64,000 nt of DNA from Takakia lepidozioides (taxonomy: Eukaryota; Plantae; Bryophyta): positions 5,146,001 through 5,210,000 of the forward strand of contig CM060733.1 in assembly GCA_030704615.1 (NCBI GenBank), in the 5' to 3' direction. Positions 2,886 through 64,000 of this stretch are shown here, in pieces. The stretch's first letter is position 1; each line of letters begins with the position of its first letter. A model generated the notes under the pieces. That model had not been told where the DNA came from and ran no database searches. It saw only the letters and a list, made by a program, of their open reading frames with translations. The translations under genes were made by a program, and so were the position numbers.

Positions 2886-4846
2886 ATGAATTGGAGCTGC
2901 CGGCAAACAGCAAGGTGCATCCGGTATTCCACGTATCCCTTTTGAAGCCTTACTTCAAAGATGAAGCGCGTCCGAATCGGCCTCAAGTGTTCCGTCCGCC
3001 ACCTGTGCTGTTGGATCATGAAAATGAACCTGAGTACGAGGTGGAGGCAGTGTTTAGGTCGAGGAGGTTCAAGAATCGAGAAATGGAGTATCTCGTGAAA
3101 TGGAAGGGCTATAATCATGTGGAGGCATCTTGGGTGCGTGCCTCAGAAATGGGGAACGCATCCGAGGCAGTTGCAGCTTTCGAAGGGCGACCTCAAAAGC
3201 GGAAGAAGCGTTGATGGGGACATCAACCTTGGAGCGTGGGGGAGGAAATGCAGGCTTAGCCCGGCTTAGCTAGCTCAGAAATCCGATTGCAAAAACTTGT
3301 ATTGTACAAATTTTGTTATAAATGAAATGGTTTCCAAATGTTGTGCGTCCTATTTTGTTTGGAATGGTGATGCATGGTATGGTTGGCTAGTGAGTAGAAT
3401 ACATGCTAAGCTTACAAAGTGGGAGAGGTAAATTGGATTAATCGTGTGTTTGTGTAGTGCCGAAATCGGGTGACTCCTACCCAAGGGGCAAAGAAACTTG
3501 CACCTTCGTTGGGAGTTCACGTGCTAGTGCGCACCTGGCGCGTGCGCGTCTTATAACTGCGCTACTGAGGGGGTTGTCTTGTAGTGCGGGTTAACGCGGA
3601 AGCCACATGCTTCCGTTCACGTACTATAATCGTGTAGCCTCGGGACGAAGTCGTAGTGCGGCTTTGGCGTGTTCCCGTATCTCAGGCCAGCATTCCAAGG
3701 CGGACCCAATTGTAGTGATTGGGGCGCACGGTTGGTTCAAGGTTATCTTCCTAGTCAAAAAGGGTTCAAGACGAACCTTTGCTCAAGGTGATCCCAAAAG
3801 CGACATCACGAGCGGTCACAAACAAATGTTGTTGTAGTAAGGCGATTCGATCCTCGGGGAGGATCGTTCCTTGGCCCTGAAGTAGGTCAAGAAGAGTGCA
3901 CTGGGAGGAGCTTGAGAGGCTCCACCCTTGGCCGGGACTTGGAGGAAGTCGGCAGAACTAGCTAGTGGAGAGTAAAGTCAAGTGGGGGTTTGGTTCTTAG
4001 CCATGGGACGCCATGGTGCGGAAACAAACTCCTTGATGTGGGACGCCACAACTTGGATGTTCGTTTCTACAAACTGGACAAGTCGATGAGGACATCGACT
4101 CCCAGTTGGTAGGGGTGTGTGTCGCAGCCCTTTGCCTCGAGGCAGGGGGTCGGGACGCAGGAGGGGCTGCTCCTGTGGTGGGGGCAGTGGCAGCGATAGG
4201 TACGGGGGGCTGAAGCACCCTTGAGTGCCTAAGGCACTCAAGGAGGGAGAGGCGCTCACTAGGTGGAGCCCCGCACACCGAGTTGCGGTGGGGGTGGCTC
4301 CACAAGGGGTGGTGGTAGCTTAGTGGGACTTAGTGGGGGTGGCATAGGACTCACCATGGGGGCGGAGACCTTGTGGTGGGAGTCGTGGGGAGTCTTGGGA
4401 CTCATCACGATCCAATGGGATCGTGGTGAGTGGGCCAAGACTCACCGCGACTCATCACCGGAATCGAGGGTTTTCGTGGTGGTTCGCCATAAAAGGGCAT
4501 GGTTGTTTGTGAAACCCCCGCGGACAGTCACAGAAGTAAATATAGGGGGAGTAGTAACCCCGAGAACGGTGCAAGCCCGTTGGTGACCAAAAACTAGTGA
4601 GTAAGCGTGCGAGCCGGAAAGCGACCAAGGTGTGGGGAGCTATTCCGGACTGCCATCGACCAAAGGGAATTTCCACTAGGCCCAAATTGGGAGAGGGTCT
4701 TGTGGAGGAGTAAAAGAGGACCGTTATGTCCCGGTGAGCAGCCGAAGCTCCGAGTTGGCCCGAGGGCCAGTTAGGGAGTTAGGCGCGCGCATCAGAGCGA
4801 GTATCTATGACTTGAAGGGGAGCTTACCGAAGTGAGGTGCGCGACA
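2886..4846 (+). mobile_element. 5'-truncated Ty3/Gypsy chromovirus copy (integrase tail, chromodomain, 3' UTR, 3' LTR 4120-4846); same family as 44566-51537
   Basis: ORF 2891-3214 ([26 protein letters not shown]) is nearly identical to the end of 48504-49907. LTR TGTCGC..GCGACA aligns to the LTRs at 44566 and 50814 with more divergence than those two show. Confidence 0.95.
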
Positions 4847-4914: not shown

Positions 4915-6000
4915 TGTCATGGTTTTTGTCATGGTTAACTATAATTACGTACTTCTAGTTAATGAGGACATTTTGGATATTTATATTTATATTTTGTGTG
5001 TTGGGACTTCATTTCGTCTCATATGCCAGGTGAGGTGTTAAGCCTCACTTGGGACACGGGGGAGAGGTTTTCCCCTTGCAAGGGTTGAGGAGGCTCATCT
5101 TCTTGTAGTTGAGCCTCCATGATCATCTCTCACCTCCATAGCTCTAGGTATTGAGAGGGAGTGTGTTGAGGGCTTTGTAGGGTGGATTTCTTAAGCAAAG
5201 GTGCCATTGGCTTGACTTACTATGATAAAGTGGATTCCTGGTCTGGTACCCTGCTGCGATACCCTTCCCCTTTTCTCCAATTTGATTTATCTCTCTTCCT
5301 CCGGACATCTAAAGCTACTATAGACGCTAGTAGCAACAAAAGAACACTTGACAAGATGGTGAGAAGAAGACAACGTGCTGAAGAACATGAGCATTAACAA
5401 TCCTTTAGTCAGTCTTGTGTGTGTGGAAGCATGGATTCTAGGGTTTGAGAATCCATTCTATGCATTACAAAGTCGATGGTTTATGCCATGACAATCCTTG
5501 TAAAATCTTGTGACTCAACAGCTTTCTTCTCTAACTCTCCAACTCCTTGGTGCATGCAACATCCGAGAACCTTTCCTTGCAACCCCTTGCAAGCCTTGTG
5601 ATACACAAGCTAAATTCTCCTAGCTCTCAACCTCCTTAACATACAAGTGCAAAACTAATCCTTACACTCCGCACTCACAAGCATAATGAGATCTTCTTAT
5701 AGTGATAAGAGATGAGAAATGAGAGAAGTGGAAGACAATGAAAACTCTCTGAGCATAAACAATCTCTAGCAATCTAGAGTTAAACAAGTTCAAAGTATGG
5801 ATGTTGTGGAAGAGAAGCCAAAAAGCTATATAGGCTTGGGCTTTTGAAGACAACAAGGGCAAACACTTGGAGAGCACTAAGAAGCTCGAGAGGTTTTGAA
5901 AGTGAGCATGTGAAGAAATCTTCCAATCATGGTGGTCAAATTTTGGTAAGTTACTCTCCGTTGCATGTTTCACTAAATACTGCCTTATCTGCTCGATATA
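4915..6000 (+). mobile_element. LTR (~4915-5227) and adjacent internal sequence of a second, degenerate LTR retrotransposon family
   Basis: TGTCATGG..CTATGATA ends, followed by NNN-TGG. Clearly homologous to 53684-53970 (shared GGGACTTCATTT, CCTCACTTGGGAC, GCAAAGGTGCCATTGGCTTGACTTA). Right boundary is approximate. Confidence 0.65.
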
Positions 6001-6511
6001 CTTTGACGACTGACGTATTCCTTTCGAGTTTTTCCTCCTTGTCAACAATAGCTGTACAACTATATATATCAACCTATATCAATCTGGACTCTGAAATTGA
6101 ACAACTGTCTTGCTTATGCAATTCATGCTTTATGTCTTTTGGATGTTGAGGGCAACCAAATCAATGGCTTTACTGTGACAGTGAGTACTGTGGTAATGAC
6201 ATCAAATACGCCCCTAAATCACGATCTGGCAGTCCATTCGCGACAAACACCAACAACTATGTTGTTGGGCTTGAAGTGCCAAAATGATCTATACATCAAG
6301 TATGTTCCCAGCTCCCTTTCCTGACCAGCAATTGCACAAATTTCATGTAAATGTATCGCTTTAGACTACCCCTTCCTCTTAGCTGGTAACCACCCGGCAT
6401 AAGTTCGACATTTATAAATCTCGGTGCCTACTTCTCCATTGGAATAGTTATTCTTTTCTTTGGCCTCTAATATTTTGAATCGGTTTTGAATAGGAGAGTT
6501 AATTGGTGGGC

Positions 6512-6735
6512 TAGGGAATTCCAAAAAGGCCTTGATGTGAAATGCATCGCAATTCACTTGATCACCCCCTAAAAGTGCGCAATTCAATTGAATCACCCCC
6601 TTGCCAATTCGCAATTCAATTGAATCGTGTGCCGACAATTCAATTGAATTGCAAATTAGGGTTAGTTCAATTGAATTGCGCACTTTTAAGTGAATTGTGA
6701 TGCATTTCACATCGAGGCCTTTTTGGAATTCCCTA
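6512..6735. mobile_element. MITE-like foldback element with ~48-bp terminal inverted repeats
   Basis: TAGGGAATTCCAAAAAGGCC.. at 6512 and its reverse complement ending at 6735. Flanking direct repeat GGTGGGC at 6505-6511 and 6736-6742. Internal TTCAATTGAA palindromes. Confidence 0.85.
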
Positions 6736-7640
6736 GGTGGGCCCCTAACATTACATACGCAAAGAACACAATAATGTCTTGATTGTGGAGGCGAGAACAC
6801 ACAATCTGGATAGCCTGTATCAATGAAAATTCTAAATGGTAGGCATGTGCTTGGTCAAACCATTTTTTTCAGTATGAAAATGGAGAATGGTAGAAAATTT
6901 GGCGTAGCATTTTTGTTATAATCTTCATAATTAGACGGTCAAATCTCCTTATTTTCTTACAGCAGGTGCATGAAGTAGGTACGATCACTTTCGTATGGTT
7001 CATCCCATTGGATGTTTGTCAAATGAGAGATATACCCTCATCTATGAGGGTACGTCTGGTTTTGGACGGGCCCAAAAGAAACAGGCTAGTGGGGGTTAAT
7101 CGCAAGTATTGGTGCTAAGCATCAAAACCCTTGGCGTATGTTTTGGCATCTCGGCCGTAGATGCAATGCCGTTTCCAACGCCTCTGATTTTATCTAATAT
7201 TATGCCATCCAACGGTTGAGATTTGAAAATGTTACAACCCAAAGAGCCGTTTATAATAGTTATCATGGATGGACATGGATGAATGTTGGCCTTCTTTCAA
7301 AAGCGCGAGCTCTACCCGAGGTAAGGCGATGGAGGGGTGGTGCCCACGCAGCCTCCAATTCAGGCTTTCGTACCCTGCACTCCACCTTCTCTCTCTCGAG
7401 TATAAATTGGCTTCTCCTTTTTCTCGATCTGGCCTCCTGAAATTTACGCTTGCCAGCATGTGTTGACTATGGATTATGTACTACAGCTCGAGGATCTGTC
7501 TACCGTGATGTGCTTCTCTTGTCTCTGTAGATTCCAGATATGTCTCTCGTTTCCAGTGTGCAGTGTTTCTGAGTCTCTCAATTTCAACTCAACAACCAAT
7601 CGAGCTTTCCAGAGATTTCCGAAACTGCCATCTGCTGACG

Positions 7641-23026: not shown

Positions 23027-39187
<16,161 letters not shown>

Positions 39188-44565: not shown

Positions 44566-47500
44566 TGTCGCGGCCCTTTGCCTTGAGGGCAGGGGGTCGG
44601 GACACATGAGGGGCTGCCCCTGTGGTGGGGGCAGCGGCAGCGATAGGTATGGGGGGGCTGAAGCACCCTTGAGTGCCCAAGGCACTCAAGGAGGCGGAGG
44701 CGCTCACTAGGTGGAGCCCCGCACACCGGGTTGCGGTGGAGGTGGCTCCACAAGGGGTGGTGGTAGCTTAGTGGGACTTAGTGGGGGTGGCATAGGACTC
44801 ACCATGGGGTGGAGACCTCGAGGTGGGAGTCGTGGGGAGTCTTGGGACTCATCACGGTCCATTGGGGCCGCGGTGAGTGGGCCAAGACTCACCGCGACTC
44901 ACCACCGGGAGTCGAGGGTTTTCGTGGTGGTTCGCCATAAAATGGCATGGCTGGTTATGAATCCCCCGCGGACAGCTACAGAAGTAAATATAGGGAGTAG
45001 TAACCCCGAGAACGGTGCAAGCCCGTTGGCGACCAAAAACTAGTGAGTAAGCGAGCGAGCCGGAAAGCGACCAAAGAGTGGGGAGCTGTTCCGGACTGCC
45101 ATCTACCAAAGGGAATTCTCCTAGTCCCAAATAGGTGGAGGGTTTAGAGGGAAGCGGAAGGGGACCGTTATGTCCCGGTGAGCAGCCGAAACTCCAAGTT
45201 GGCCCGGCGGCCAGGTTGGGAGTCAGGCGCGCACATCAAAGCGAGTAACTATGACTTGAAGGGGAGTTTACCGAACTGAGGTGTGCGACACTTGGTATCA
45301 GAGCTTAGAGTTCAGTACGCAATCGTCCTTGGGATTGGCCTCATCATGGGGTCGGGCAAGCCGAAGCGAAAGCGGAACGGCCCAAAAGATGATGATCCCG
45401 GTGAGCCCGATGGGGGCGACGTGTCACCGAGGCGGCCGTTTGAGGAAGCGATTAATGTTTCCGAAAACGAGGCCGCTCAGGAGCGGGAGGAATCCGAGGA
45501 GTCGGAGCCCGAGGAATCTTTGAGAGCTCCGACAAACCAAGAGATGCCTCCCATGCCGGCAGCCTTTTGGGAAGGGTTGTTGGCGCAGTTTGGCGGGACG
45601 TTGAAAGACGTGTTGAAGGCGGCTAATGCCACTTCCACCAAGGCAAAGTTTAAGGTGAAGCCTAAGGAACTCGGCACCTTCGAGGGCGTTCGAAACCGGA
45701 AGGCACTCAACACCTGGCTCCTGGAGCTAGAGCAGTACTTCCGGGCGGCCAAGTTGAGTGACGAGGATCGGGTGGAAGTGGCTCCCACCTATTTGAGGGG
45801 CTATGCTCAACAATGGTGGCAGAAACGCCTTCACGACCGAGGCCCAAGCCCGGAAACCTTGAACTGGAGTGAGTTCAAGGAATTGATGAAGAGACAGTTT
45901 GTGCCCCTCAACGCATCCTGGCTTGCCCGGGACAAGATGAGGAATTTGAAGCAAACAGATGACATTCGGGGGTATGTCCAGGCTTTCAATGTGCTGTTGC
46001 TCGAAGTCGCGGACATGGCAGAACCAGAAATGGTCTTCAACTTTGTGGCGGGACTGGCCCCATGGGCTAGGCGGAAGTTGGAGGAGAAGCCACCCAAGAC
46101 TTTGAACGAGGCAATTGAGAGAGCTGAATGTTTCTCGGATGTCCCTAAGGGTGAGAGACAAGGCCGTACGGAGCTGAACCACAAGAAGACCCGGCGGGAA
46201 GGTGACTCCTCCCGACCGGAAAAGAAGTGGGATAGGCCACGCGGCGAAAATGGCACGTGGAAATCGAAGGGAGGTCCTTCACACGTCAAGGCGGCACCCG
46301 GTGCTTCGAAAGGAAAAGCGGGTGGAGCGAGTTATGGCGGACAGAAGGCGACCTTTGATGGAGTGTGTTTCAATTGCGGGGAGCCCGGGCACATGGCCAA
46401 GAAGTGCACGAAGCCCCGGCAATTGAACATGACTCGGGCGACCACGGAGCTGTCGGAAGATACCATCAGTCGCTTGGTGGAAGCGGTGGTCGCCAGGACT
46501 TGCAAGGTAGGCAAATTTTCTTGTGAGTTGTATCAGGAAACTGGCGCCTTACGAAAAGGGAGTCAGTTATTGTTCGTGGATGGGATAATATCCGGAACTA
46601 ATGTGTCGTTGTTGGTGGACACAGGAGCGTCGCACTCCTTCATGACGCCGGCGGCGGCGCGAAAGTTGGGACTCCCGACAAGTGACGTGGGGGCCTCTAT
46701 TGAGGTGCGCTCTGCCAAAGGAGAACCTCAGTTGGCGACAAGGTTGGCGTTTGATGTTCCTCTTCAACTGGGGAGTTGGGAGGGACGTGAGAACTTCACT
46801 ATCTGCGAGATCGATGGAGTGGATCTCATTTTGGGAATGACCTTTTTGAGCAAATCCGGAGCGGTCATAGATGGCCGCAAGAGAGTAGTCACGCTGCCAT
46901 GTGGGAATGGTGGCGAGGTTTTACGAGTGTCGGAAACGCCCAAATCCGTGGGAGGGCGAATAAACCTTCTATCAGCAAAGGAGTGGGCCGTGGAGGAGAC
47001 ACACGAGTCCCAGTTTTTGCTTTACATTAGAGAAGTGAAAGGAGAAGGCGATGGGGAGCCGAGCCCAGATTGGATCAAGGGGATTTTGGAGAAATACCAG
47101 GATGTGATGCCGGAGGATTTACCAAGCGGCTTGCCACCGCGAAGAGGAGTTGACCACAAAATTGAGGTGATACCGGGATCGGAACCGCCTGCCAAGGCGC
47201 CCTACCGGTTGAGCCACAAAGAGTTGGTCGAGCTGAAGACTCAGCTCAAAGATCTAATGTCAAAGGGGTACATCCGGCCGAGTAAGTCACCTTACGGAGC
47301 CCCGGTGCTATTTGCAGACAAGAAGGATGGGACGCTGCGGATGTGTGTCGATTACAGGGCTCTGAATAAGGTGACTATCAAAAACCGGTACCCTTTGCCA
47401 AGGATCGACGACCTCTTCGATCGGTTGGCAGGAGCGAAGTATTTCAGCCGGATCGACTTGCGCTCCGGCTATCACCAAATTCGGGTGGCGGAAGGAGATG

Positions 47501-50500
47501 AGGAGAAGACCGCGTGCAGGACAAGGTATGGTTCATATGAGTTCTTGGTGATGCCTTTTGGGCTCACCAATGCACCAGCGACATTTAGCACGCTGATGAA
47601 CAGCCTTTTCCAGGAGTGGTTGGATGACTTTGTGATCGTGTACATCGACGACATCTTGGTGTACTCGAAAACAAAGGAGGAGCACCTGGAGCACCTCAAA
47701 AGGGTGTTCCAAAAATTGCGAGAAGGGAAGCTGTATGCCAAAGCTTCAAAGTGCGAATTCGGGGTCACAAAAGTGGAGTTCTTGGGGCACGTGATTACAC
47801 AGGATGGGATCAAAATGGATGACAGAAAGGTGAGGGCGATCTTGGACTGGGAGCCTCCGACTTCGGTCCCGGGAGTGCGATCCTTCCTAGGACTCGCCTC
47901 CTATTACCGGAAGTATGTGAGAAATTTCGCCAAGATCGCGGGGCCGCTGTCGGACCTTCTGTGTAAATCCAAAGTCTGGGTATGGAACACATTTTGTGGC
48001 CAAGCTTTTGCTGAATTGAAGCAGCGGATGACGGAAGCTCCAGTCTTAAAAATCCCGGAGTTCGATCGTCCGTTTGAGATTCATACAGATGCATCGGACT
48101 TCGCAATTGGGGGTGTACTTATGCAAGATGGACGTCCAGTGGCTTACGAAAGTAAGAAACTGAATGAAGTGGAGCGACGGTGGCCGACGCACGAAAAAGA
48201 GATGAAGGCGGTGGTACATTGCCTTGAACTCTGGCGCCACTATGTTGGTTCCAACCCAGTGAAGGTGTTCACGGACAATGTCACGGTGAAGTATTTTGCC
48301 ACGCAGCCCAAGTTGTCCCCAAAACAACTTAGGTGGCAAGATACTTTGGCAGTGTTCGACGTGGATATCCAGTACAAACCGGGACGGGACAATGTGGTGG
48401 CCGATGCTTTAAGTAGAAAGCAGCAGCTCTTGTTGGTGTACAAGGGCGAGACGGCGCTCCAAAGGAAGATCCGGAAGGCTTGCCGGAAGGATGAGCTGGC
48501 AAAGTGCGTGATGCAAACTTGAGAATGGGGGTTAAATCGCAGTTCCACTTGCAAAACGGACTGCTCCGGTATAAGCAAAAACGTCTCTATGTGCCAAAGG
48601 GAGGGATCAGGGATAGTCTCTTGAGAGAATGCCATGATAGCCCGCTTGCGGGCCACGGTGGAGCCAAGCGCACTGCGGCACTCTTGAAGAAAGAGTATTT
48701 CTGGCCCAAACTGAGGGAGGAGGCAGAGGAGTATGTAAAGACATGCACCACATGCCAACAAAACCGGAGCGAGTATAAAAAGCAAGCGGGGCTGTTACAA
48801 CCCTTGCCGATTCCAGAGGGGACTTGGGAAAGCGTCTCGATGGATTTCATGACTGCTATGCCGCTGTCAAAAGGATTCGATGCAATCATGGTGGTGGTAG
48901 ATAGGTTCAGTAAAATGGCCCATTTCATCCCCACCAAGGAGACGGCAACTGCGCAGGAGACAGGGCGACTTTACTTCGCCCACGTCTTAAAGCATCATGG
49001 AGTCCCGAAGGATATTGTCTCGGACCGCGACCCAAAGTTTACGAGTAAATTCTGGAGAGCACTTTGGAAGAAGATGGGGACGAGGCTGAAGATGAGCACC
49101 GCCTTCCGACCTACGACGGACGGCCAAACGGAAAGAGTGAATTCCGTAGTGAAGCAATTCTTGCGGAATTACGTGTCGGCAGACCAATCAGACTGGATGG
49201 AACACTTAGACGCGGCAGAGTTCTGTTATAATAACACAGAACACTCCGCGACGGGAGTTTCCCCTTTTGTGTTGGTCTATGGAAAAGCACCTCTGGTGCC
49301 GACAAGTTGGGCCGCCCAGGACGTTGAGGAACCGGCAGTAGCGGCGGTACTGGAAGAACGCGAGCGTTTGTTGAAGCTCGCAAAGTACAACATTGCCAAA
49401 GCTAGGAAACGGTATGAAAGGCAGGCGAATCGGAAGCGGAGGGAAGTGAAGTTTGAGGCAGGCACAGAGGTCTGGTTGAACATCAAGAATTTTCGACTAC
49501 CTCCGGAAATGAGTCCGAAGTTCGTACCTCCGTATGCGGGTCCCTTTCGCATTCGGAGGGTTATGAATGAGGATGTGTATGAATTGGAGCTGCCAGCAAA
49601 CAGCAAGGTGCACCCAGTATTCCATGTCTCCCTTTTGAAGCCTTACTTCAAAGATGAAGCACGTCCGAATCGGCAGCAAGTGTTGCGTCCGCCACCTATG
49701 CTGTTGGATCATGAAAATGAACCCGAGTACGAGGTGGAGGCAATACTTAAGTCGAGGAGGTTCAAGAACCGAGAAACGGAGTATCTCGTCAAATGGAAGG
49801 GCTATCATCTTGTGGAGGCATCTTGGGTGCGTGCCTCAGAAATGGGAAACGCATCCGAGGCAGTTGCAGCGTTCGAAGGGCGACCTCAAAAGCGGAAGAA
49901 GCGTTGATGGGGACATCAACCTTGGAGCGTGGGGGAGGAAATGCATGCTTAGCCCGGTTTAGCTAGCTCAGGAATCCGATTGCAAAAACTTGTATTGTAC
50001 AAAAATTTGTGATAAAGGAAATGGGTTCCAAATATTGTGCGTCCTATTGTGTTTGGAATGGTGATGCATGGTGTGGTTGGCTGGTGTGTAGAATGCATGC
50101 TAGCTTACAAAAGTGGGAGAGGTAAATTGGGTTAATCGTGTGTTTGCGCAGTGCCGAAATCGGGTGACTCCCATCCAAGGGGCAAGGAAACTTGCGCCTT
50201 ATTTGGGAGTTCAAGTGCTAGTGCGCACCTGGCGCGTGCGCGTACTATAACTGCGCTACCGAGGGGGTTGCCTTGTAGTGCGGGCTAACGCGGAAGCTAC
50301 GTGCTTCCGTTCACGTACTATAATCGTGTAGCCTCGGGACGAAGTCGTAGTGCGGCTTCGGCGTGTTCCCGTACCTCAGGCCAGCATTCCAAGGCGGACC
50401 CAATTGTAGTGATTGGGGCGCACGGTTGGTTCAAGGTTATCTTCCTAGTCAAAGAGGGTTCCAGGTGAACCCTTGCTCAAGGTGATGCCAAAAGCGGCAT

Positions 50501-51537
50501 CATGAGCGATCGCAAGCAATGTTGTTGCAGTAAGGCGATTCGATCCTCGGGGAGGATCGTTCCTTGGCCTTGAAGTAGGCCAAGAAGAGTGCACTGGGAG
50601 GAGCTGGAGAGGCTCCACCCTTGGCCGGGACTTGGAGGAAGTCGGCCGAACTAGCTAGTGGAGAGTGGAGTCAAGTGTGGGGTTTGGTTCTTTGCCATGG
50701 GACGCCATGGTACGAAAACAAACTCCTTGATGTGGGACGCCACAACTTGGATGTTCGTTTCTACAAAATGGACAAGTCGATGAGGACATCGACTCCCTGT
50801 TGGTAGGGGTGTGTGTCGCGGCCCTTTGCCTTGAGGGCAGGGGGTCGGGACACATGAGGGGCTGCCCCTGTGGTGGGGGCAGCGGCAGCGATAGGTATGG
50901 GGGGGCTGAAGCACCCTTGAGTGCCCAAGGCACTCAAGGAGGCGGAGGCGCTCACTAGGTGGAGCCCCGCACACCGGGTTGCGGTGGAGGTGGCTCCACA
51001 AGGGTGGTGGTAGCTTAGTGGGACTTAGTGGGGGTGGCATAGGACTCACCATGGGGTGGAGACCTCGAGGTGGGAGTCGTGGGGAGTCTTGGGACTCATC
51101 ACGGTCCATTGGGGCCGCGGTGAGTGGGCCAAGACTCACCGCGACTCACCACCGGGAGTCGAGGGTTTTCGTGGTGGTTCGCCATAAAATGGCATGGCTG
51201 GTTATGAAACCCCCGCGGACAGCTACAGAAGTATATATAGGGAGTAGTAACCCCGAGAACGGTGCAAGCCCGTTGGTGACCAAAAACTAGTGAGTAAGCG
51301 AGCGAGCCGGAAAGCGACCAAAGAGTGGGGAGCTGTTCCGGACTGCCATCTACCAAAGGGAATTCTCCTAGTCCCAAATAGGTGGAGGGTTTAGAGGGAA
51401 GCGGAAGGGGACCGTTATGTCCCGGTGAGCAGCCGAAACTCCAAGTTGGCCCGGCGGCCAGGTTGGGAGTCAGGCGCGCGCATCAAAGCGAGTAACTATG
51501 ACTTGAAGGGGAGTTTACCGAACTGAGGTGTGCGACA
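44566..51537 (+). mobile_element. Full-length Ty3/Gypsy chromovirus, Galadriel-like; LTRs 44566-45290 and 50814-51537
   Basis: TGTCGC..GCGACA LTRs of 725 and 724 bp. TSD GATAC at 44561-44565 and 51538-51542. tRNA-iMet PBS TGGTATCAGAGC at 45293-45304; PPT before 50814. The clade call rests on recalled gag, RT and RNase H motifs. Confidence 0.97.
45346..49907 (+). CDS. Gag-Pol polyprotein (Gag, CCHC, PR, RT, RNase H, IN, chromodomain) with a 1-bp frameshift at ~48515
   Basis: [49 protein letters not shown] integrase core, chromodomain [15 protein letters not shown]. Adding one A to CAAAC (48514-48518) fuses the two ORFs. Confidence 0.95.
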
Positions 51538-53683: not shown

Positions 53684-56600
53684 TATCATGGTTTTGTTTG
53701 TGATTAGTTAGAAATAGTTATTTCTTACTAATTAGAACATTATACATTTATATTTTGTTGGCATTGGGACTTCATTTGGTTCCATGTGCCAAGTGGGGTG
53801 GCGAACCTCACTTGGGACGTGGACGTAGGCAGGCTCGTCTTCTTCTAGTTGAGCCTCCCGAGGCCTCTCTCGCCGCCATAGCTCTAGTTCTTGAGATGGA
53901 GAGTGGGTGAGGTCTGTATGGTGGAATCCTTTAGCAAAGGTGCCATTGGCTTGACTTATATAACATGATAGAGTGGTTTCTCCTCTTTCACCAACACTAG
54001 AAAAAAACCTGCTTACATCTATGAGTGCAAGGTGTTAGCATAGTTAGCACTTGTGTGTGGAAGAGAGCTTGGTAGATAGTTCTTAAGTTACAAGGTGTTG
54101 CAGGGTTTGCAAGAGGAAAGCCTTGTGGTGTTTATGTACAAGAGGAGGTCTTCAAAGAGAGCCCCATTGAAAAGTTTGAGAGCTTGTGAAGAAGCTCTTG
54201 TTCTGCAAGTGTTGCAGGGTTTGAGGAGTTCAAGAAGAGCTCAGGTGTTAAGGAAACAAGCGGTGCATGTGTGGAGCATGGTTTCAGCTTGTGGGAGTTT
54301 TCAACTTCAAGCTTAGGAGAGCTATGAGTGGAGGTAGACATCTGATTTCTCTTTGGGGCAGAATAATGTATTTGTAGAGCATGCTTTGAGTTGGGGTTTC
54401 AATCCCAAGCTTGGGAAGAGCATGTCTATGGAAGTGGCAAGTGCAGGGCTGGATTAGGAGCTCTAAGAGGTGCACTATGGCTATGGAAGGAAGCAATATG
54501 AGTGCATGCGATGGCTAGAAGTGGGCATGCCATAGAAAGCTCAATAGCTTGTTCTATGCTTGTTTCAAAAAGTTCTATAGAGAAAGAGAGCTTGTTGTGT
54601 GGCAAATAGCTTGCTCAGAGAGTTAGAGGCACTCTTGGTGGTCTATTGATGCTCAAGAGACCAAGAACAGCACCTCTGGTTGCTCCATAAAAGCCATAGC
54701 TCGTTGCAGCAATCGCAGAGGCAAAGTGGCGCAAACCCTAGCTTGGGAACGCTTGGGAACGCGTGTGAACTCCTTGGGAACTCGAGGGAACGCGTGAGAA
54801 CGCTTGGGAACTCCCTGGGAACTCGTGGGAACGTATAGGAACGCGTGGGAACATTGCCCCAGTGTTGGGAGCACCACCATTGTCCCATCGGATGAACTAT
54901 TGAGCCAGTGGATGACAATCGGCACTCCTTGATGAGAATCGGTTGCAGTGGATGAAATTACGCCAGTAGATGAAATCATGTCAGCAGATGAACTATCACG
55001 CTATCAGATGAAAAATCACGGCAACGGATGAAACTACGTCAGCGGACGAAATCGTGGCAGCGGATGAACTATCGTGCCATCGGATGAAAAATTGCGGTGA
55101 CGGATGAAACTCCGTCAGCGGATGAAATTGTGGCAGCGGATGAACTATCGTGCCATCGGATGATGAATCGTGGCGACGGATGAAACTGCGCCAGTGGATG
55201 AAATATCGCACCGGCGGATGAACAATCGTGGCGGATGAGAAATCGCGGTTTTGGATGAAATTTGGTCGGTGACGGATGAAAAATCGACTGACTGTGGATA
55301 TTTTTGGAGCCTTATGGGGGCTTGTTTGAGGACTATTTGGGGTCTATTGAGGCCAATATCTTACAAGTATTGGGCCTGCTTTGAGGACTATTTGGGGTCT
55401 ATTGAAGCCAATATCTTGCAGGCTTGTGGAGCCTGCTTGGGGCTGTTTGAAGGACTATTTGGGGTCCTTTGAGGCCAATGTTTTGCTAGCCTGTGGAGCC
55501 TTGTGAGGGCTGGTTGGAGGACGATTGGAGGTCCTTGAGGCCTATGGGGCAGACTTATGGAACTTTCTAAGAGCTCTTTGGTTGGAGTTCCTTGGAGGCC
55601 AATACTTGGCAGATTTGAGGAGCTTCTTAAGGGCTGTTGGAGGACTGTTGGAGGGCTGTTGGAGGTCCTTGGAGGCCAATACTTGGCAGATTTATGGAGC
55701 TTCTTAAGGGCTGTTTGGAGGACTCTTTGAGGTCCTTGGAGGTCATATTGGGCAGGCTTGTGGAGCCATTGTGAGGGCTGGTTGGAGACCTTGGAGGCCA
55801 CTAATTGGCGGGCGCCTAGGGCCTTTTGGTAGACTGTTTAGTGTCCAAGTTTGCGAACTTCTTGAACCTCGATGGGTCTATGTTATGGGCTGATTGAGGG
55901 CAGATTTCAGAAGTTCATGGCAATAATTTGAGGGCTCTTGAGAGTTATTTGAGAGGTTCTTTAAGGATAGTCTTATCTATTGCTTGAGCAAGAATGACTG
56001 TGAAGGTAGAGGGAGTAATGGGATGAGAGCATTATGGGCTTAGAGATTGTTTTAGCTTCCCTTCTCTATAGTCTTCCATCATTCTTGTAGGCCAAAACTT
56101 TTCCGTTAGCGGAGGCAGAGCTAGTTTGGATAGAGACTTGGTCATCTTGCAGGTTTATTGAAGCCGCAAGGAGATCGATTGATTTAAGCTGTGGGAGATG
56201 TTATTGTTTGAGTTTCTTGTGTTTTGATCCTCCTCCCACACATGCATGCTTGACTGTGCGCCATGCTAGTTTGGTTTGGATGCTTGCTTTTATAGGTGGT
56301 TGTGCCGGAAATATTGTGGCCGGCCAATCCTAGAGCGTGCGGTCGGTGGTGAGGCTGGGGTGATGACCATCATACCATCATTGTTTCTCTTATGGTGAGG
56401 CTGGGTTGATGACCAGCAGACCATAGGAGTGCCTGCGGTGGATGCAGGTGCAGGTGCAGGTTTAGAATAGGAACCTAGTATTCCAAACCATAAGCCGCAA
56501 CAGGTTCTCTACCCGGTTACCTTGTGGAAAATGGGCTTAGAGACAGGTTGATAGCCGGTTTGAGTGTGAGTTTACATCACGGAGGTGCCACCAGTTGCTG

Positions 56601-58350
56601 AGGAGAGTGCCGGTACGAGCACCAGCGATACTAGTGGGTATACCAGACAAGGTGTGCGGTTTAGGCCACCTTCACCTTCAGTGTCTTCTGAGAAAGGTTC
56701 AGACTCAGAGTTAGGAGGATTCTCGCCGTGGGTGCAAACCATTTCCGTGCCATTGTTGTTGGATACGATGGAGAAAATGTCTGGAGTTACCAAGGGGCCA
56801 TGTCGGTACTCGGGAGCTGTGGGCACCATCGAGCTTGATGATTTCATACAGGAGTTTGATAGTTGGTGTGATTTGCAGCAGATACGCAATCCACAACTGT
56901 TTACGCTTTTTATGGCGTGGAAGGGACTGTTCAGCACCTTGAGGGTCGCCTATGGATGACTACCATGAGTTTAGGCGGGGAATGAGGTGGAGATTTGAGG
57001 AGTGGCGACAATATTGGTCACCTAACTATATCTCCATCACTAGAGGCACAAGGGCAGCGGCGACACCAGCAGCTACACCAACATCCCCAACTGCAAGCAC
57101 TAGTAGTGGGACAAGTAAAGATGGAGCTTCAAAATCCACTCAAGCTTCTGCTGCAGCACTAGCACCTGTGCCTGTCTTTAACCCAGTTCTGGAGTTCTTC
57201 GAGGAGTTGAGGAGAAACTACTAGGGAATAAGGACAGAGAAATTGCGGAGCTTACAAGAGTTCCAGCACAAGCCTACTGAGAGTTTGAGGGAGGCATACA
57301 CGCGCATGAGGCGATTGATAAATGTAACCCAAGGGGTTACGGAAGCTCAAGCAGTCCAATTCTGGTATAGGATATTGGACAAGGAGCTGAGGAGAAGGGT
57401 GTAGGATGCAACTCTCCTACAAGTGGACCAACCCACCTTAGCAAACGTGTTTTTGCTGGTAGAGTAGATAGAGCCCAATATGGTGGAGGAGCGAGTGGTC
57501 ATGGTGGGGTTTGGTAAGGAGACACAACGAAGTGGGGCTCCTAGCCAACAACAACCACTACCCCAACGTGCTCAAGGCAACAAGGAGGCTCAGGCGAAGC
57601 CCAGGGGAAGGACAGAGAGGATCTCAATTGCAGAGGTCATTTCTTTCATTCTCAGGCCAACAACAGTCAGGTGTGACATGATGGGATTGTGGAGGACCCC
57701 ATGTTAAAAGAGATTGCCCGGAGAAAGACAAAGGGCCGGCACAGGCACAGCCTACACAACTACAGTGTAGGCATTGTGGCAAGTATGGGCATGAGGGGCC
57801 CATTGTTATGACTTGCATCCTGAGCTACGGCCAGGCCAGTTCTAAGGGAACAATGGTGGCCGAGAACGAGGCAATGTAGTCCAAAGAGATAGAGGAGGCA
57901 GAGGTCGCGGTGGAGGTCGTACCAAAACCAATGAGCACAAGGTCAAGGTCAAGGTCATGACCAAGGCATGGTGGATAGGCTTGCCCAGCTAGAGCAACGT
58001 CTTGCTACCATGGCCACTACTCATGTTGCGCCAGCTCCAAGGCCTGAGATTCAAGCCCCACCTGCACAACCTCCTATGCCTAGGGAAGACCAGATTGGTA
58101 TGGGCTTCATGTGTGGAGCCGCACTTACAGGACCATTGCATGTGGACTCTGCAGCTGCTGTTATTCGAGCAGCAGCGTGTGCTCCTGAGCCAAGAGGAGC
58201 AGATGTGGATCCACAAAGAGGGGAAGCAAATCGACAGACAAGGCTTCCACAGTCTTTCACATTGGCTGAGACAGTGCCAACTACGCCATCGATGGTACCC
58301 ACTCGCCCAAGTGTGTTAGAGGTAGAGCCACGAGTGCCGGTGGGAGGGGG
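53684..58350 (+). mobile_element. Degenerate LTR retrotransposon: LTR 53684-53970, long repeat-rich leader, decayed gag (~56730-58350)
   Basis: LTR homologous to 4915-5227. Gag-like segments (YSG..ELDDFIQEFDSWC, EFFEELRRNY..EKLRSLQEF..ESLREAYTRM, knuckle CRHCGKYGH) with many stops. Confidence 0.65.
54741..55805. repeat. Three adjacent tandem-repeat blocks
   Basis: 10-11-bp GGGAAC units (54741-54852), GGATGAA-core units of ~19-23 bp (54888-55283), and ~65-bp GGAGGCCAATA units (~55300-55805). Confidence 0.85.
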
Positions 58351-58737
58351 GTGCTATTCTGTGATCCCAGAGGCGTGAGCCTGTGAGCCCAGGAAACCGT
58401 GAGCCCAGCACAGGCTCACGCCACGTCAGCATGCATACAGGGCATATTTCCGCGGGTGTCACCTATTACCGCGGGTTGATCAGCCATTTCCAGGGAATGC
58501 AGACTGGAAGTGTTACATCCATTGTATCCATCATTTCTATCCATTGCATCCATTTAGACGTAAGACTGAGGAGGACTTGAAAGAAGTCCAAAAAGGTGTG
58601 ATAGCCCTGGAGGGTCAGTGGAAGCATGCGGACTCTTGCACAAGTGGACAAAAACCAATTTTGAACACAATGATGCAATGCACAAGTCCAACGAAGAGGA
58701 TATCTCCCAATTCTTTGCAAGCATCCACAGGTTGAAC

Positions 58738-59329
58738 TTACTCACAGGCAAAGTCATCATCCAGCTCCTTGTCGGAAGTCTCCCCTGTATCAATATCAGC
58801 GGGTAGGGCTTCGGAAGGACTTGAGAAGTGTGTCCACCCAAACCCATCAGGAGGTTCTTGTAAATCTCGGCATCCCCTTCAATCCCAAAGAGATGTCGCG
58901 CACTGGCCTTGCAAGCGTGGTACGAGGCACCTGCAGTGGAATACAATGAAGGAAATAGACATTGAAGACACATTTGGAACGGTGGGAAGAGCTTAAAGTG
59001 CAAGGTCAAACAAACCTCACGAAATGTGAATGTTGAAGAGACAAAACTGTGTCCATTAACAAATCCAGAACTCTGGCGTCTGTGTAGGTGCAGCACTCCA
59101 CAATCGTCTGAATGAAAGCCGGGCTCCTCTCCCTGGCCCCTTTCCAAGGAACCCCATTCCCCCTTCGCAAGCACACGTTGTTGTCCACGTAGTGGTGCAT
59201 GTCATCCGTGGGAGGATCTGTCCTCTCGTCTATGAACTTGCCCCCATGAGTGATGGCGAACTCCCTAATGACGGCTGGAGTCGTAGGTGGATGCACTCGG
59301 ACGAGACAAATAACTTCAAACAAACAAGT
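58738..59329 (-). pseudogene. Two spliced exons resembling the C-terminus (motif X, I and downstream) of a beta-class N4-C/N6-A DNA methyltransferase
   Basis: Exon 59329-~59047 (..PWKGARERSPAFIQTIVECCTYTDARVLDLLMDT) plus exon from 58930 (GASYHACKASARHLFGIEGDAEIYKNLL) match the pattern KP..L...LI...T..GD.VLDPF.G.G.T..A....GR..IG.E.D..Y. The donor is damaged or off by 1 nt, and no catalytic motif IV exon is present. Confidence 0.55.
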
Positions 59330-59371
59330 CTGCGAACAGGACATACACAAGGGACTAAGAAGCATGAATTC

Positions 59372-60300
59372 GAAGCTCAAACAGTGTGCGCCAACGCACA
59401 CTGTTTGAGCCCCCCTTCTCATTGTTTTTTTCATAATAAAATCGTCCAGACAGGGTAACTCTGTGAGGTTCATCCACACTAACTTGGCAGCTCAAACGGT
59501 GTGCGTCAACGCACATTGTTTGAGCCCCCCTTGTAATTGTTTCTTGAATGTGAAAATCGTGCACACAGTCGCCTCTCTCTAAGGTTCATTCCATCCCTTT
59601 TTGGAAGCTCAAACAGTGTGTGACATTGCACACTGTTTGAGCCCACACTTGACATTATTTTTTCATTTTAGAATCGACCACAAAGGTCATCTCTGTCAGG
59701 TTCAATTCACACTTATCTGGCAGCCCAAACAGTGTGCGTCAACACACACTGTTTGAGCCCCCTGATTTGCTTGTTTTTTGACATGAAAATTGTGCACCTA
59801 GGGCCAGTCTGGCAGGTTGAATCCACCTCAAAATGGAAGCTCAAATAGTGTGCGGCAACGCACACTGTTTGAGCCCCCTTGTCTGCTTGTTTTTTGTTGT
59901 GAAAATCGGGCACCTAGGGCCACTCTGGCAGGTTGAAACGAACCCTTATTGGAAGCTCAAACAGTGTGCGGCAACGCACACTGTTGAGCCCCCTCTCTTC
60001 TTGTTTTTCTATGTGAAATTGGGCCAAACAGGGCCAGTATGCATGCTCAAAACACCCATAGTTGGTAGCACGAAGAGTGTGCGGCAACGCACACTGTTTG
60101 TGCCCTCTTTTTGGCCCCCTCTCTGCCTGTTTTTTTTGTGGAAATGTGCCACATAGGGCCAAATATCATGTTCAAAACACCACTATTTGGAAGCTGAAAC
60201 ATTGTGCGGCAACGCACAGTATTTTCGGCCCCCACACTGCTTGTTTTCTGATGAGAAATTGGGCCACAGAGAGCCTATCTGCCATGCTCAAAACACCATC
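59372..60300. repeat. Array of eight ~116-bp tandem units, each with a 36-bp palindrome (16-bp arms, 4-nt loop)
   Basis: GCTCAAACAGTGTGCG-NCAA-CGCACACTGTTTGAGC at 59375, 59490, 59607, 59723, 59839, 59955, 60068 and 60193. Confidence 0.95.
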
Positions 60301-60350
60301 GTTTCATGCCTCTCTTATATCAATTTGAATGAACAACTCTTTAGGAGAAG

Positions 60351-62703
60351 ATGCAAAATGTGGCGGATGAGATCCCTTCGGGGCAGGGGAAGGAGATCAT
60401 TGTTGATGTGGACGATGAGTTTTATGAAAGCAAAGCTGCTGAGATGCTAGGGGGTTAGAAGGTAAACTCTCAGCTTGTGGTGCAAAGTATGCTTGCCCCA
60501 GGTGGGAGGTTGAAGATTCCCCTATGTAGGTTGGTTTCCATGCCCGTCGTTCGTCCACCCCTCATCAAGGACATCCTGAAGCTGGAGGCCGAGTTTGTTC
60601 ATGGGTATTTGGATGGATCCGAAGTCTTTTACGTTTCTACAAAGGATTCCAGAGGCAAAGAGCTCCTTGTGGATGAGTCAATTGTGGACTCATGGGATCC
60701 CATTTGGAGACAGGTGAACGAATCCTTCGAACTTCTTCCCTCCAGGAAACCTTCCACCCAAGCATTCTCAGGGAAGATGTTTCACATTTGGGATGGAAAC
60801 CACCTGTTGCTTGCATGGATGGCTGTCATTGGGAGGCTGCACTCACAGGAGGAAGAGTGGCATTACTCTGTTCGATCGATGGTGCTGGATTGTGACGGGA
60901 ACATGATGGGTCTTCTGACGACAATGAATGATGTGAACAGGTTGGTTTCTCATTCTACATGTTCCACCTGTGGTTCCGTGGTTCTTTGGTTCAAGTCCTC
61001 TGTTGACGGTCCTTGAATTTCATTCTGACTTTCACACATCATTCTACAGAGGGACGGAGACATCGCATGTCAAAACGAGTCTGGTTCACACATTGTACAG
61101 GATACAAAGGATCGGGCAGATGCCCTTGACCAACTTCAAGACCATCCTTTCAGCAGAGACGTACAAGAAGTGCGAAAGCTCCAAGACATCAGAAACGTGG
61201 TACTCGTTGACCCGTGAGGCTTTCATGGAGTATATGTACGCAGTGAGATACATCTTCCATCATCTGGCCTTTTGATATTCCTGCTTCCACATGTTTGTTT
61301 CTGTTTGTTTCCCTTGCCCTTGGGTTGATGCAACTCTCGTGCATTCCCTTGCAGCAAGACATTGCAGATGCAGGAGAGCGTGACAAATTGGAATACTACA
61401 GCTCTACCCCTGAGGAGAGAAGGACAGCAAAAGGTGTTGAGAGTCACATCCAGAAAGAGATGACCGCCACAAGAAGGACTATTATGAGTGCTTTTGTGAA
61501 ACAACTGAGAATTGCAGACCCAACCTTCGGACCAGAGTTCCTTCAAGAGGTGAAAAACCATTACAACAAGCCAGGCAAGCCGGAGATGGCCCAGGAGAAG
61601 TTACACAGGTTGTTTACTACCGTTGTGTCTTCAGAACAGAAGGTGAAGTGGCTACAGATATGGAACTCTGATCCCACTGTTAGGGATACCCACATGTTCC
61701 CCAGGCCGGAGAAAGAGAAGAAGACCCAGCGTGTCATTCCTGTCAGTGACAATGTGCTGGACACATGGCTTCACAAGGCCACTTACTGGAGCCAGGTATG
61801 ATGTCCTTTGCTGTGTCACTTTCTTTTCGCTTTTTCTGTCATTCTTTTTCCATGTTACATTGGTTGTGATTGTTTTTTTGTTCATTCTTGCTTCTGTATT
61901 GGTCTGCAGTTGGAGGAAAGGGCCCGGGCTGGCTGACTATGGGATCACCATGACAGAACCAAAGGTCTCCTTCCAAGCATACATGAGGAAATGGAGAGCC
62001 ACAGTGTGGCAGTCTTGTTTCTTCAGAGAGTTCAGCAAGGATGCTGGCATCAGTCGAACAAATGAGCTTGACCAGCAAGAGAAAGGAGAGGAAGCCTGGA
62101 AACGATGCCTTTACAGGTGCGAAATGGACTGTGCTTCTTTGTTTTGCATAGACACAATCTCCTCCATCCAACCTGTTTTTGGCTGGCTCATATGAGTTTC
62201 TAGTGGAGTGTAATGTGTCGCATACTCTTTTAGGGGGTCTTCGTGATGGGGTGGAAAAGCTGGGAGACAATATTTGCATTGCATAATGAGGTTGTCTTTG
62301 TTCCTGCAGGTATATAAAGTATGTTCTCATGGCAGAGAACTGCTTGGACAAACATCCTGATTTCGTGGACCTTTGGCTTGTCCCTGCTGGCAACCAGACC
62401 ATGTTTACTACGGGGATCTTGCATGACTGGGGCCCAGACCATCTCTCTGCTTGTGGTTGGTATTTGGATTGCCCTGCTTCAGAGACCCCAGCTCAGGAGG
62501 TGTCTTTGAGGAGAAAGAATGAGCGTATAGCAGCTACCGCCGCAGCAACCGACCTCGACATTCATGAGAGAAATTTGAGGACTCTTGCAGAAAAGGAGCC
62601 TCCCGCTCAGGATACACCGGGTAAAGGTAGAAAGGCAAAGGGAAAGGATGTTGCTGGTGGTGTGGGGAAAGGAAGGGGTAGGGGGAGGGGGGCACAAGGG
62701 TAG
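60351..62703 (+). pseudogene. Spliced gene with an N-terminal ParB/Sulfiredoxin-like domain, decayed; followed by an LTR insertion
   Basis: Exons 60351-60940, 61050-61242, 61355-61795, 61910-~62117 and 62310-~62700 with GT-AG junctions. IPLCRL..VRP..DILKLEAEF..GY..FHIWDGNHL fits the ParB/Srx DGxHR signature. TAG at 60456, frameshift near 61930, C-terminal GRGRG tract. Confidence 0.6.
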
Positions 62704-62782
62704 GTAGGTGGGTAGGGAAGTGTTGCAGATACTGGCCCTCTGGTGGTTGTCCAACAGACTCCACCGCATGGTAGGGGATCCG

Positions 62783-64000
62783 TATTAGGTGCCAGGAACG
62801 AAGATCGACCTGTCAACTAGTTTGGAATAACAAGAGACTGCTAGAATATCGCCGAACTGACAGTTGCAGGTAAAATGAAGCAGGCTCGCGTGCACGAAGA
62901 GATCCAAGACTAGGGATTTTTGAGGGGTGCTTGGAGATGGAAAGAGGGTTGAAGAGAGGATGATGGCGTACAGGCGTCTAGAGCAGATCTGCATCGACAG
63001 GAAAATCTGTATATAGCACGGCGTGGTGGCTGGGTGGACCGGAGGCTGTAGCCGGTGCTGTGCTTTTAGAGTGTAGGTTGAAGTTGGAATAGTTGACACT
63101 GGCCTTTGGTGCCTTGCAGCGGTAGGGACTGTGATTTCTCCTTTGTATAGAGAAATGATTTAGGCTTCATCAGGTGTTGATTTGAAGAGTGACAATGCAG
63201 ATTTGATTCTAGTTACTGTTTGGGACAAGAAAGATCTGCTTAAGGCTTGTGAATACACTTCCGTGAAGAACAGGGGTGAACGATCGTTGGACTGGTGTGG
63301 TCTCTGTTACGGTCTGAGTCAATGAACGGTGACTGGAATAAAAGAAGATGGTCACATGAGTCCATATTGACGTTGATTCAAGCAAGCAGATTTCTTGGGA
63401 TCTTGTGAAGCTGTGTCGGGCTATGACTGGCTGTGTAAAGCTGTGTCAGGCTGTGACTGGCTGTGCGAAGCTATGTCGGGTTGTGTCTGGCTGTGATAGA
63501 TTGTGATGGGCTGTGTAAAGCTGTGTCTAGCTGTGAGAGACTGTGACGAGCTGTCTAACCCCCTAAAGCCTGCTCCTGCCACCCCTAAGGCTCATGTTGG
63601 TCTCAGTCTGCGCAAAAAATTAAGGGTACCCCACAGAACCCGTAAAAGTGACTAAGTCCCAAGCAGCCCTCTAACATTACCCCTCCCCCTCTCAAAAAGC
63701 CGTGTCCTCACGGTTTACTGCTTGGGATCAGCAAACCTTTGTGAGCGAGCATCCTTCAGTCGGTGAGAGTCTCGTGAAGGACTCCGTGTGCGAGCCCGAG
63801 TCCTGTCACTGGCTGATGGAGATGATTGAGCACTACCTGGAAATGTCTGACCCTCCTTTGGCTGATAACGAGGTAACCTCTCAGGCATAGGAGATCCCCG
63901 TCGTTTCTTCTCTGCCATCTGAAGTGCATAGTCCTCTGCCATGTCAAAAGAGTCCTCTGAAGAAATAGTAGTATCAGAATCCTCGTCCCCCCTTAGGTGT
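62783..64000 (-). mobile_element. 3' LTR (~62783-63676), PPT and end of pol of a third LTR (Gypsy-like) element running off the window
   Basis: Minus strand reads stop TAA, CCGTGAGGACACGG, AGGGGGAGGGGTAA, then TGTTAG; LTR ends ..CTAATA. Contains ~10-bp GCTGTG tandem repeats at 63405-63556. Confidence 0.7.

Follow-up and report, generated by a model that had tools for sequence, protein, structure and literature searches.

An array of eight interrupted palindromes lies just upstream of a gene for a predicted ParB-fold protein in the 64,000-nucleotide stretch of Takakia lepidozioides DNA analysed here (the window; contig CM060733.1, positions 5,146,001 to 5,210,000). From sequence comparisons we consider it likely that the palindromes are element-specific binding sites for this protein, within a high-copy mobile element. 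The array is real and probably functional, and would belong, as a land-plant variant, to a proposed type of accessory system of transposons. The concept itself has already been published for algae (Bostrychia PAG3 and Ectocarpus Sola1-1).

Table 1. Location of the palindrome array and of the features around it in the window
Feature	Position	Strand	Remarks
Candidate element end	58370..58431	.	begins GAG; several GTGAGCC repeats; 13-bp-arm hairpin; abuts decayed gypsy gag
Two predicted exons with similarity to the C-terminal (SAM-binding) half of a beta-class amino-methyltransferase	58740..59335	-	opposite to the ParB exons
Probable rearrangement junction between the intron of the methyltransferase exon and unit 1	59359..59376	.	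5-bp direct repeat flanks 7-8 bp of filler; inferred
Tandem palindrome array, 8 units	59375..60300	.	repeat and arm-pattern searches
Spliced gene for ParB/Srx-fold protein, 5' and middle exons	60351..63400	+	3' limit approximate; cut by LTR element near 63400
LTR start and polypurine tract of a separate retrotransposon interrupting the element	63404..63700	-	left limit approximate; loose ends 63676-63677

Structure and conservation of the palindrome array

Each of the eight units is about 116 bp long and consists of a 36-bp interrupted palindrome followed by a spacer of about 80 bp. The palindromes have 16-bp arms and a 4-nt centre with the core CG-N4-CG, and start at positions 59375, 59490, 59607, 59723, 59839, 59955, 60068 and 60193. 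The unit spacings re-measured from these starts (115, 117, 116, 116, 116, 113 and 125 bp) are those given in the initial annotation. With up to three mismatches allowed, the 16-bp arm pattern matches 15 times in the 64-kb window, where 0.48 matches are expected, and 14 of these matches fall inside the array. Re-reading of the loops likewise returned GCAA for units 5-8, while units 1-4 carry CCAA, TCAA, ACAT and TCAA, respectively. The two CpGs of the CG-N4-CG centre are retained in 13 of 16 places, and the spacers of the array contain 7 CpGs compared to 29 expected.

The spacers are homologous among units (51-80% alike), unlike the unique, unrelated spacers of a CRISPR array. Spacer identity is highest between neighbouring units and drops the farther apart two units lie (r = -0.74 for identity against distance; permutation p = 0.0006), indicating that the array grew by local duplication.

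That the palindromes are better kept than the spacers, as had been claimed at first sight, is borne out by counts of letters off the column majority, which amount to 22 of 254 in the arms (9%) and 147 of 628 in the spacers (23%; Fisher p = 1.5e-7, for units that are not independent of one another). Even the best-conserved 32-column stretch of spacer is still 19% divergent, compared to 9% for the arms. The initial annotation had further described compensatory substitutions in the last two units. Both are present: in unit 7 a T-A pair is changed to A-T at arm position 3, and in unit 8 a C-G pair is changed to G-C at arm position 4, with a G-T pair next to it at position 3. Both units contain arm mismatches as well, and unit 8 has a bulge. 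Altogether 15 arm pairs are altered, comprising 2 Watson-Crick double changes, 8 G-T pairs, 4 broken pairs and 1 gap; at least two Watson-Crick double changes arise by chance with p ~0.03 (permutation). Thus, the compensatory changes exist, but at 2 of 15 altered pairs and this p value the support for compensation is thin.

A gene with a predicted ParB fold adjoins the array

An ATG about 50 bp past the end of the array, at position 60351, opens the spliced ParB-fold gene. Two contigs bridge position 60320 by at least 31 letters on each side (run X3, record 16; run X5, record 32), one of them including palindrome 8. A search with the first large exon returned 538 relatives at E <= 0.001, and a structure model built from 47 sequences reaches a pLDDT of 93. 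The first domain is predicted to adopt a ParB/sulfiredoxin fold, its top fold matches being Noc, ParB, KorB, PadC and sulfiredoxin, with modest scores (Foldseek best E 0.007 and none at E <= 0.001; VIA Z 7.9, rmsd 2.7, 92 aligned). In the model of a 672-aa relative the ParB fold is followed by a helical region, and KorB aligns to this model loosely, with both of its domains and over 195 of 201 residues (rmsd 8.1, Z 7.8); this hints at a possible helix-turn-helix DNA-binding domain beyond the ParB fold.

The nearest Atlas neighbours of the protein are DUF3723 clusters at 0.96, while Pfam returned nothing significant, and no DUF3723 match, for 12 window ORFs or 14 further proteins. A PDB sequence search gave a single match, to a ribosomal protein, which was judged spurious. 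Named relatives occur in Riccia and Adiantum, in line with a seed-free plant as the host, and 14 metagenome stretches encode a relative. The GxxR-like motif GNHR is found in 42 of 46 relatives; the window copy reads GNHL. It also has a stop at 60456-60458, at the first position of which nearly all contig depth reads C instead of T. As judged from its sequence, the window copy is a pseudogene.

Full-length relatives from Riccia have about 1200 aa and a C-terminus resembling PF01555 (E ~1e-5, just under the curated cut-off), with a DxPT-type motif (non-canonical DxPx) where DPPY is usual. The liverwort and fern relatives are ParB-amino-methyltransferase fusions. In the window, exons that resemble the C-terminal half of this methyltransferase, with moderate support, lie on the minus strand. 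Pairwise BLAST of the minus-strand exon with the fern protein P0079 gave E 4e-6, after which an earlier reading of this ORF as a hAT transposase was dropped. With two family profiles the minus-strand exons rank best of 1730 six-frame segments (E 0.0066 and 0.22); the second exon and the splice sites were read by eye. The exon has no usable Atlas match and none by word-based homology search, and no statistically supported trace of the methyltransferase's N-terminal half was found in the window. Since the relatives are single fusions, an inversion of the array and the 5' exons against the 3' exons is probable here, and its breakpoint would lie near 59361. After matching positions 59195-59361, one contig (run X5, record 27) continues with 44 unlike letters. 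Two contigs also diverge from the window at 58561, which suggests a deletion at this position.

Palindrome arrays at homologous loci

The ParB-fold protein has multi-copy matches in 7 of the 8 plant genomes aligned. From the 21 matches listed we compared four loci (L003-L006), two of which come from the same species, leaving three distinct loci from three plant families, each with 1.5 kb of flank. The downstream exon order of L003-L006 is the same as in the window, and a palindrome array is found upstream of the homologous gene in all three distinct loci (L003, L005 and L006). The 1.5 kb upstream contain 7 hairpins in the window, 2 in L003, 4 in L005 and 5 in L006, whereas the 1.5 kb downstream contain 0, 0, 1 and 0, respectively; shuffled sequences average 0.1-0.5 hairpins with a maximum of 2.

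None of these palindromes resembles that of the window in sequence, although the CG-N4-CG centre is common to three of the four arrays. L003 contains two perfect copies with 10-bp arms, 222 bp apart, and two degenerate copies. In L006 six copies are spaced 188-206 bp apart, with a 14-bp core that is invariant in 6 of 6 units and spacers that are 26-65% alike; two arm variants alternate, each still symmetric. The six units of L005 are 111-124 bp apart and have long variable centres, more hairpin-like in appearance than fixed protein sites. At the DNA level, nothing close to a copy of the array turned up in 20 aligned genomes, the matches being about 30-50 bp long and mostly located at the protein motif. 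A pattern scan of viral contigs gave two single palindromes (L001 and L002), which are probably due to chance.

Two side observations concern these loci. Odd and even units of L006 cluster by spacer and arm type, forming a higher-order dimer of about 390 bp, and the spacing of about 195 bp is close to the nucleosome repeat length. In L005 a short ORF and plant-type 5' UTR motifs precede the array on the same strand.

Across loci, as far as these sequences extend, position and symmetry are conserved, in contrast to sequence, loop and spacing. Such a pattern is hard to reconcile with a neutral satellite, with a GNRA RNA motif or with helical phasing, and favours family-specific sites read by an element-encoded dimer. 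The initial annotation had pointed to a GNRA-type loop and to a 116-bp period of about 11 helical turns, but GCAA is confined to 4 of the 8 units here and replaced by GGAC and GTGC in relatives, whose spacings (188-206, 209-285 and 111-124 bp) do not keep to such a period.

Proposed binding sites for the ParB-fold protein and alternative explanations

The dyad symmetry had been attributed to selection, with dimeric-protein sites as one of the options, an idea in line both with the conservation of arms over spacers and with the unrelated arrays upstream of the homologous gene. Selection thus probably acts on the palindromes as sites for a dimeric protein. We propose that a dimer of the ParB-fold protein would recognise the two-fold symmetric palindrome as ParB does parS and load on the element as a clamp, and that methylation by the fused amino-methyltransferase domain would serve to mark or shield the DNA of the element itself, probably keeping the element expressed or mobile. 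Tandem duplication would multiply the sites, selection on the arms would retain them while the spacers drift, and from family to family the protein would change along with its site. In a more far-reaching version, possible but tentative, moss, liverwort and fern DNA transposons would carry a self-contained module that reads and writes in the manner of bacteria. A nucleotide-gated clamp of the ParB type, loaded at family-specific palindrome arrays, would spread along the element, deposit N4-methylcytosine or N6-methyladenine and protect the element from silencing, with site and protein co-evolving by family.

Alternatively, the palindromes may serve a transposase or a host dimeric factor at the promoter of the element, the ParB-fold gene being merely the nearest cargo. 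The array does occupy the 5' region of the gene, and transposases often use repeated subterminal motifs, which counts for transposase sites. We nevertheless regard this as unlikely, as the candidate terminus bears a different motif and the palindrome sequence differs between families, which is easier to reconcile with a partner encoded by the element than with a conserved host factor; moreover, in the available text on the published algal cases the pairing with a ParB-fold gene recurs across transposon superfamilies.

It is also improbable that the units act as RNA or single-stranded DNA hairpins, be it in a 5' UTR or intron, as sources of small RNAs or as recombination-prone cruciforms. The strong folding of the array (z -8.4), the GCAA loops of four units and the variable centres of L005 would fit hairpins, as would the excess of G-T (7) over A-C (2) among single changes read on the plus strand, which is not significant (p = 0.18). 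Against this, the arm sequence itself is conserved beyond pairing, Watson-Crick compensation is rare among the altered pairs, and loops vary between units and families; an Rfam search gave two weak matches, both far below gathering scores.

Finally, a neutral transposon-internal satellite in which template switching or intra-strand conversion maintains the symmetry of the arms is a reading to which we give little credence and which is already weakened: similarity falls along the array as in ordinary unequal exchange and template switching could yield the two double changes, but conversion keeps symmetry within a unit and not identity between units amid near-random spacers (L006), and the same position of the arrays in three other families is left without explanation.

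Comparison with known systems

In bacterial ParB-parS systems the CTPase ParB recognises parS and slides in a CTP-dependent manner, with a ParA partner on a prokaryotic replicon; to our knowledge such clamps are regarded as prokaryotic. Binding of the palindromes by the ParB-fold protein would share with ParB-parS and Noc-NBS the ParB/Srx fold, a GxxR-like motif in most relatives and clustered palindromic sites by the gene. It differs in the plant nuclear intron-containing gene, the longer interrupted palindromes, the fused methyltransferase and the lack of an evident segregation role; no ParA-like ORF was noted in the window. The initial annotation had likened the array to parS or REP sequences and had considered a replication origin. 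As the window is plant nuclear DNA, the array is not a bacterial parS, REP or origin. It forms one cluster in 64 kb, unlike REP sequences, which are bacterial, intergenic and dispersed genome-wide, while the likeness to parS is apt by analogy in that the next gene has a predicted ParB fold.

The closest descriptions come from algae. In Plavaka (EnSpm-type) transposons of the red alga Bostrychia, tandem inverted repeats lie beside the ParB-like gene PAG3, for which self-binding and self-modification have been proposed without experiments (bioRxiv 10.1101/2025.02.11.637652, available text). By description, PAG3 is similar as a transposon accessory gene with an N-terminal ParB-like domain and an adjoining array, but according to the same text its fusion partner is a putative 2OG-oxygenase, and a separate gene (PAG2) encodes the methylase. 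In the brown alga Ectocarpus, an accessory gene of the DNA transposon Sola1-1_Ec32 encodes a ParB-like protein of ~1100 aa fused to an N4C/N6A methyltransferase, which has been proposed, again without experiments, to bind and modify its own element (PMC12477816, available text). It shares the type of fusion with the relatives of the window protein, and the mobile-element setting. The string 'palindrom' is absent from the main text of that paper, and the window differs in having no transposase that we could see.

A tested precedent for tandemly multiplied, family-specific targets of an element-encoded protein is the anti-silencing system VANDAL/VANC of Arabidopsis, whose target motifs become more numerous as tandem repeats form in non-coding DNA (PMC5735166, available text). 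According to this source VANC carries DUF1985/DUF287, recognises short non-palindromic motifs and causes loss of 5mC; neither domain has a Pfam match in the 12 window ORFs or the relatives. Fungal Starships, which are tyrosine-recombinase elements, contain DUF3723 genes as conserved cargo of unknown function, and ParB is unmentioned in the main texts of the two sources (PMC9156397; 10.1101/2025.02.28.640899). The likeness lies in the Atlas clusters and in the role as mobile-element cargo, but Starships are fungal and Pfam matches to DUF3723 are lacking here. In the available text of Iyer et al. (PMC4738411), fusions of ParB-HTH with a methylase are described for chlorophytes and chytrids but this plant family is not covered, and that of PMC8885841 describes N4C methylases that are unfused or linked to a chromodomain. 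A land-plant report of such a system was not found in the literature searched, i.e. main texts including few subscription papers.

The window copy itself is dead. With its four palindrome families, the land-plant version would offer naturally occurring cognate and non-cognate pairs on which the model of self-binding and self-modification from the two algal genome papers could be tested. Should the model hold, VANC would no longer be the sole kind of anti-silencing system of transposons, this being the second, and sequence-targeted epigenetic tools might be derived from it.

Genomic setting of the element

Motif recognition in translations identified F-box, FtsH-like and PPR-like genes, a LINE and gypsy elements, marking the window as plant nuclear DNA, and every one of the 30 bins of 56-64 kb is covered by contigs from DNA runs of the host organism. 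That the region is highly repeated is clear from run X1, in which 29,712 records give a summed depth of ~100,000 across the element, a value that is not a copy number, compared to ~55-90 for several single contigs. Run X7, presumed to be RNA, has no contigs over 59204-61339, which carries no weight as to expression. At the candidate end contig depth rises about fivefold over the preceding bin. The mobile element around the array is decayed and present in high copy, and is probably a DNA transposon of the cut-and-paste type. Neither the window nor the 1.5-kb flanks of the homologous loci compared showed a transposase, and no second element end or target-site duplication was seen in the window; in the Sola superfamily a DDD transposase is accompanied by terminal inverted repeats and a 4-bp target duplication. 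A Helitron 3' end consists of a hairpin and then CTRR followed by T, and was rejected for the hairpin at 58370, where CTRR followed by T is missing. A Replitron was unsupported, as no Rep gene was seen (compared with the available text of PMC10288648).

Other repeats were noted in passing. A decayed gypsy-type gag with a zinc knuckle (56430-58378, plus strand) ends at the candidate terminus and is preceded by tandem-repeat-rich DNA (54744-55797). A Ty3/gypsy element (44566-51537), whose gag-pol ORFs are long and whose direct repeats of 725 bp are 99% alike, lies inside a PPR-like gene; a 92% relative of the element's 3' part is located at 2886-4846. A LINE with endonuclease and reverse transcriptase (28525-32331, minus strand; 963-aa ORF) has a 141-bp tandem repeat in its first ORF. 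Repeat copies at 53686-53980 and 4917-5237 are 70% alike and possibly represent an LTR end, and a MITE-like, self-inverted element of 226 bp with an internal 32-bp repeat is located at 6511-6736.
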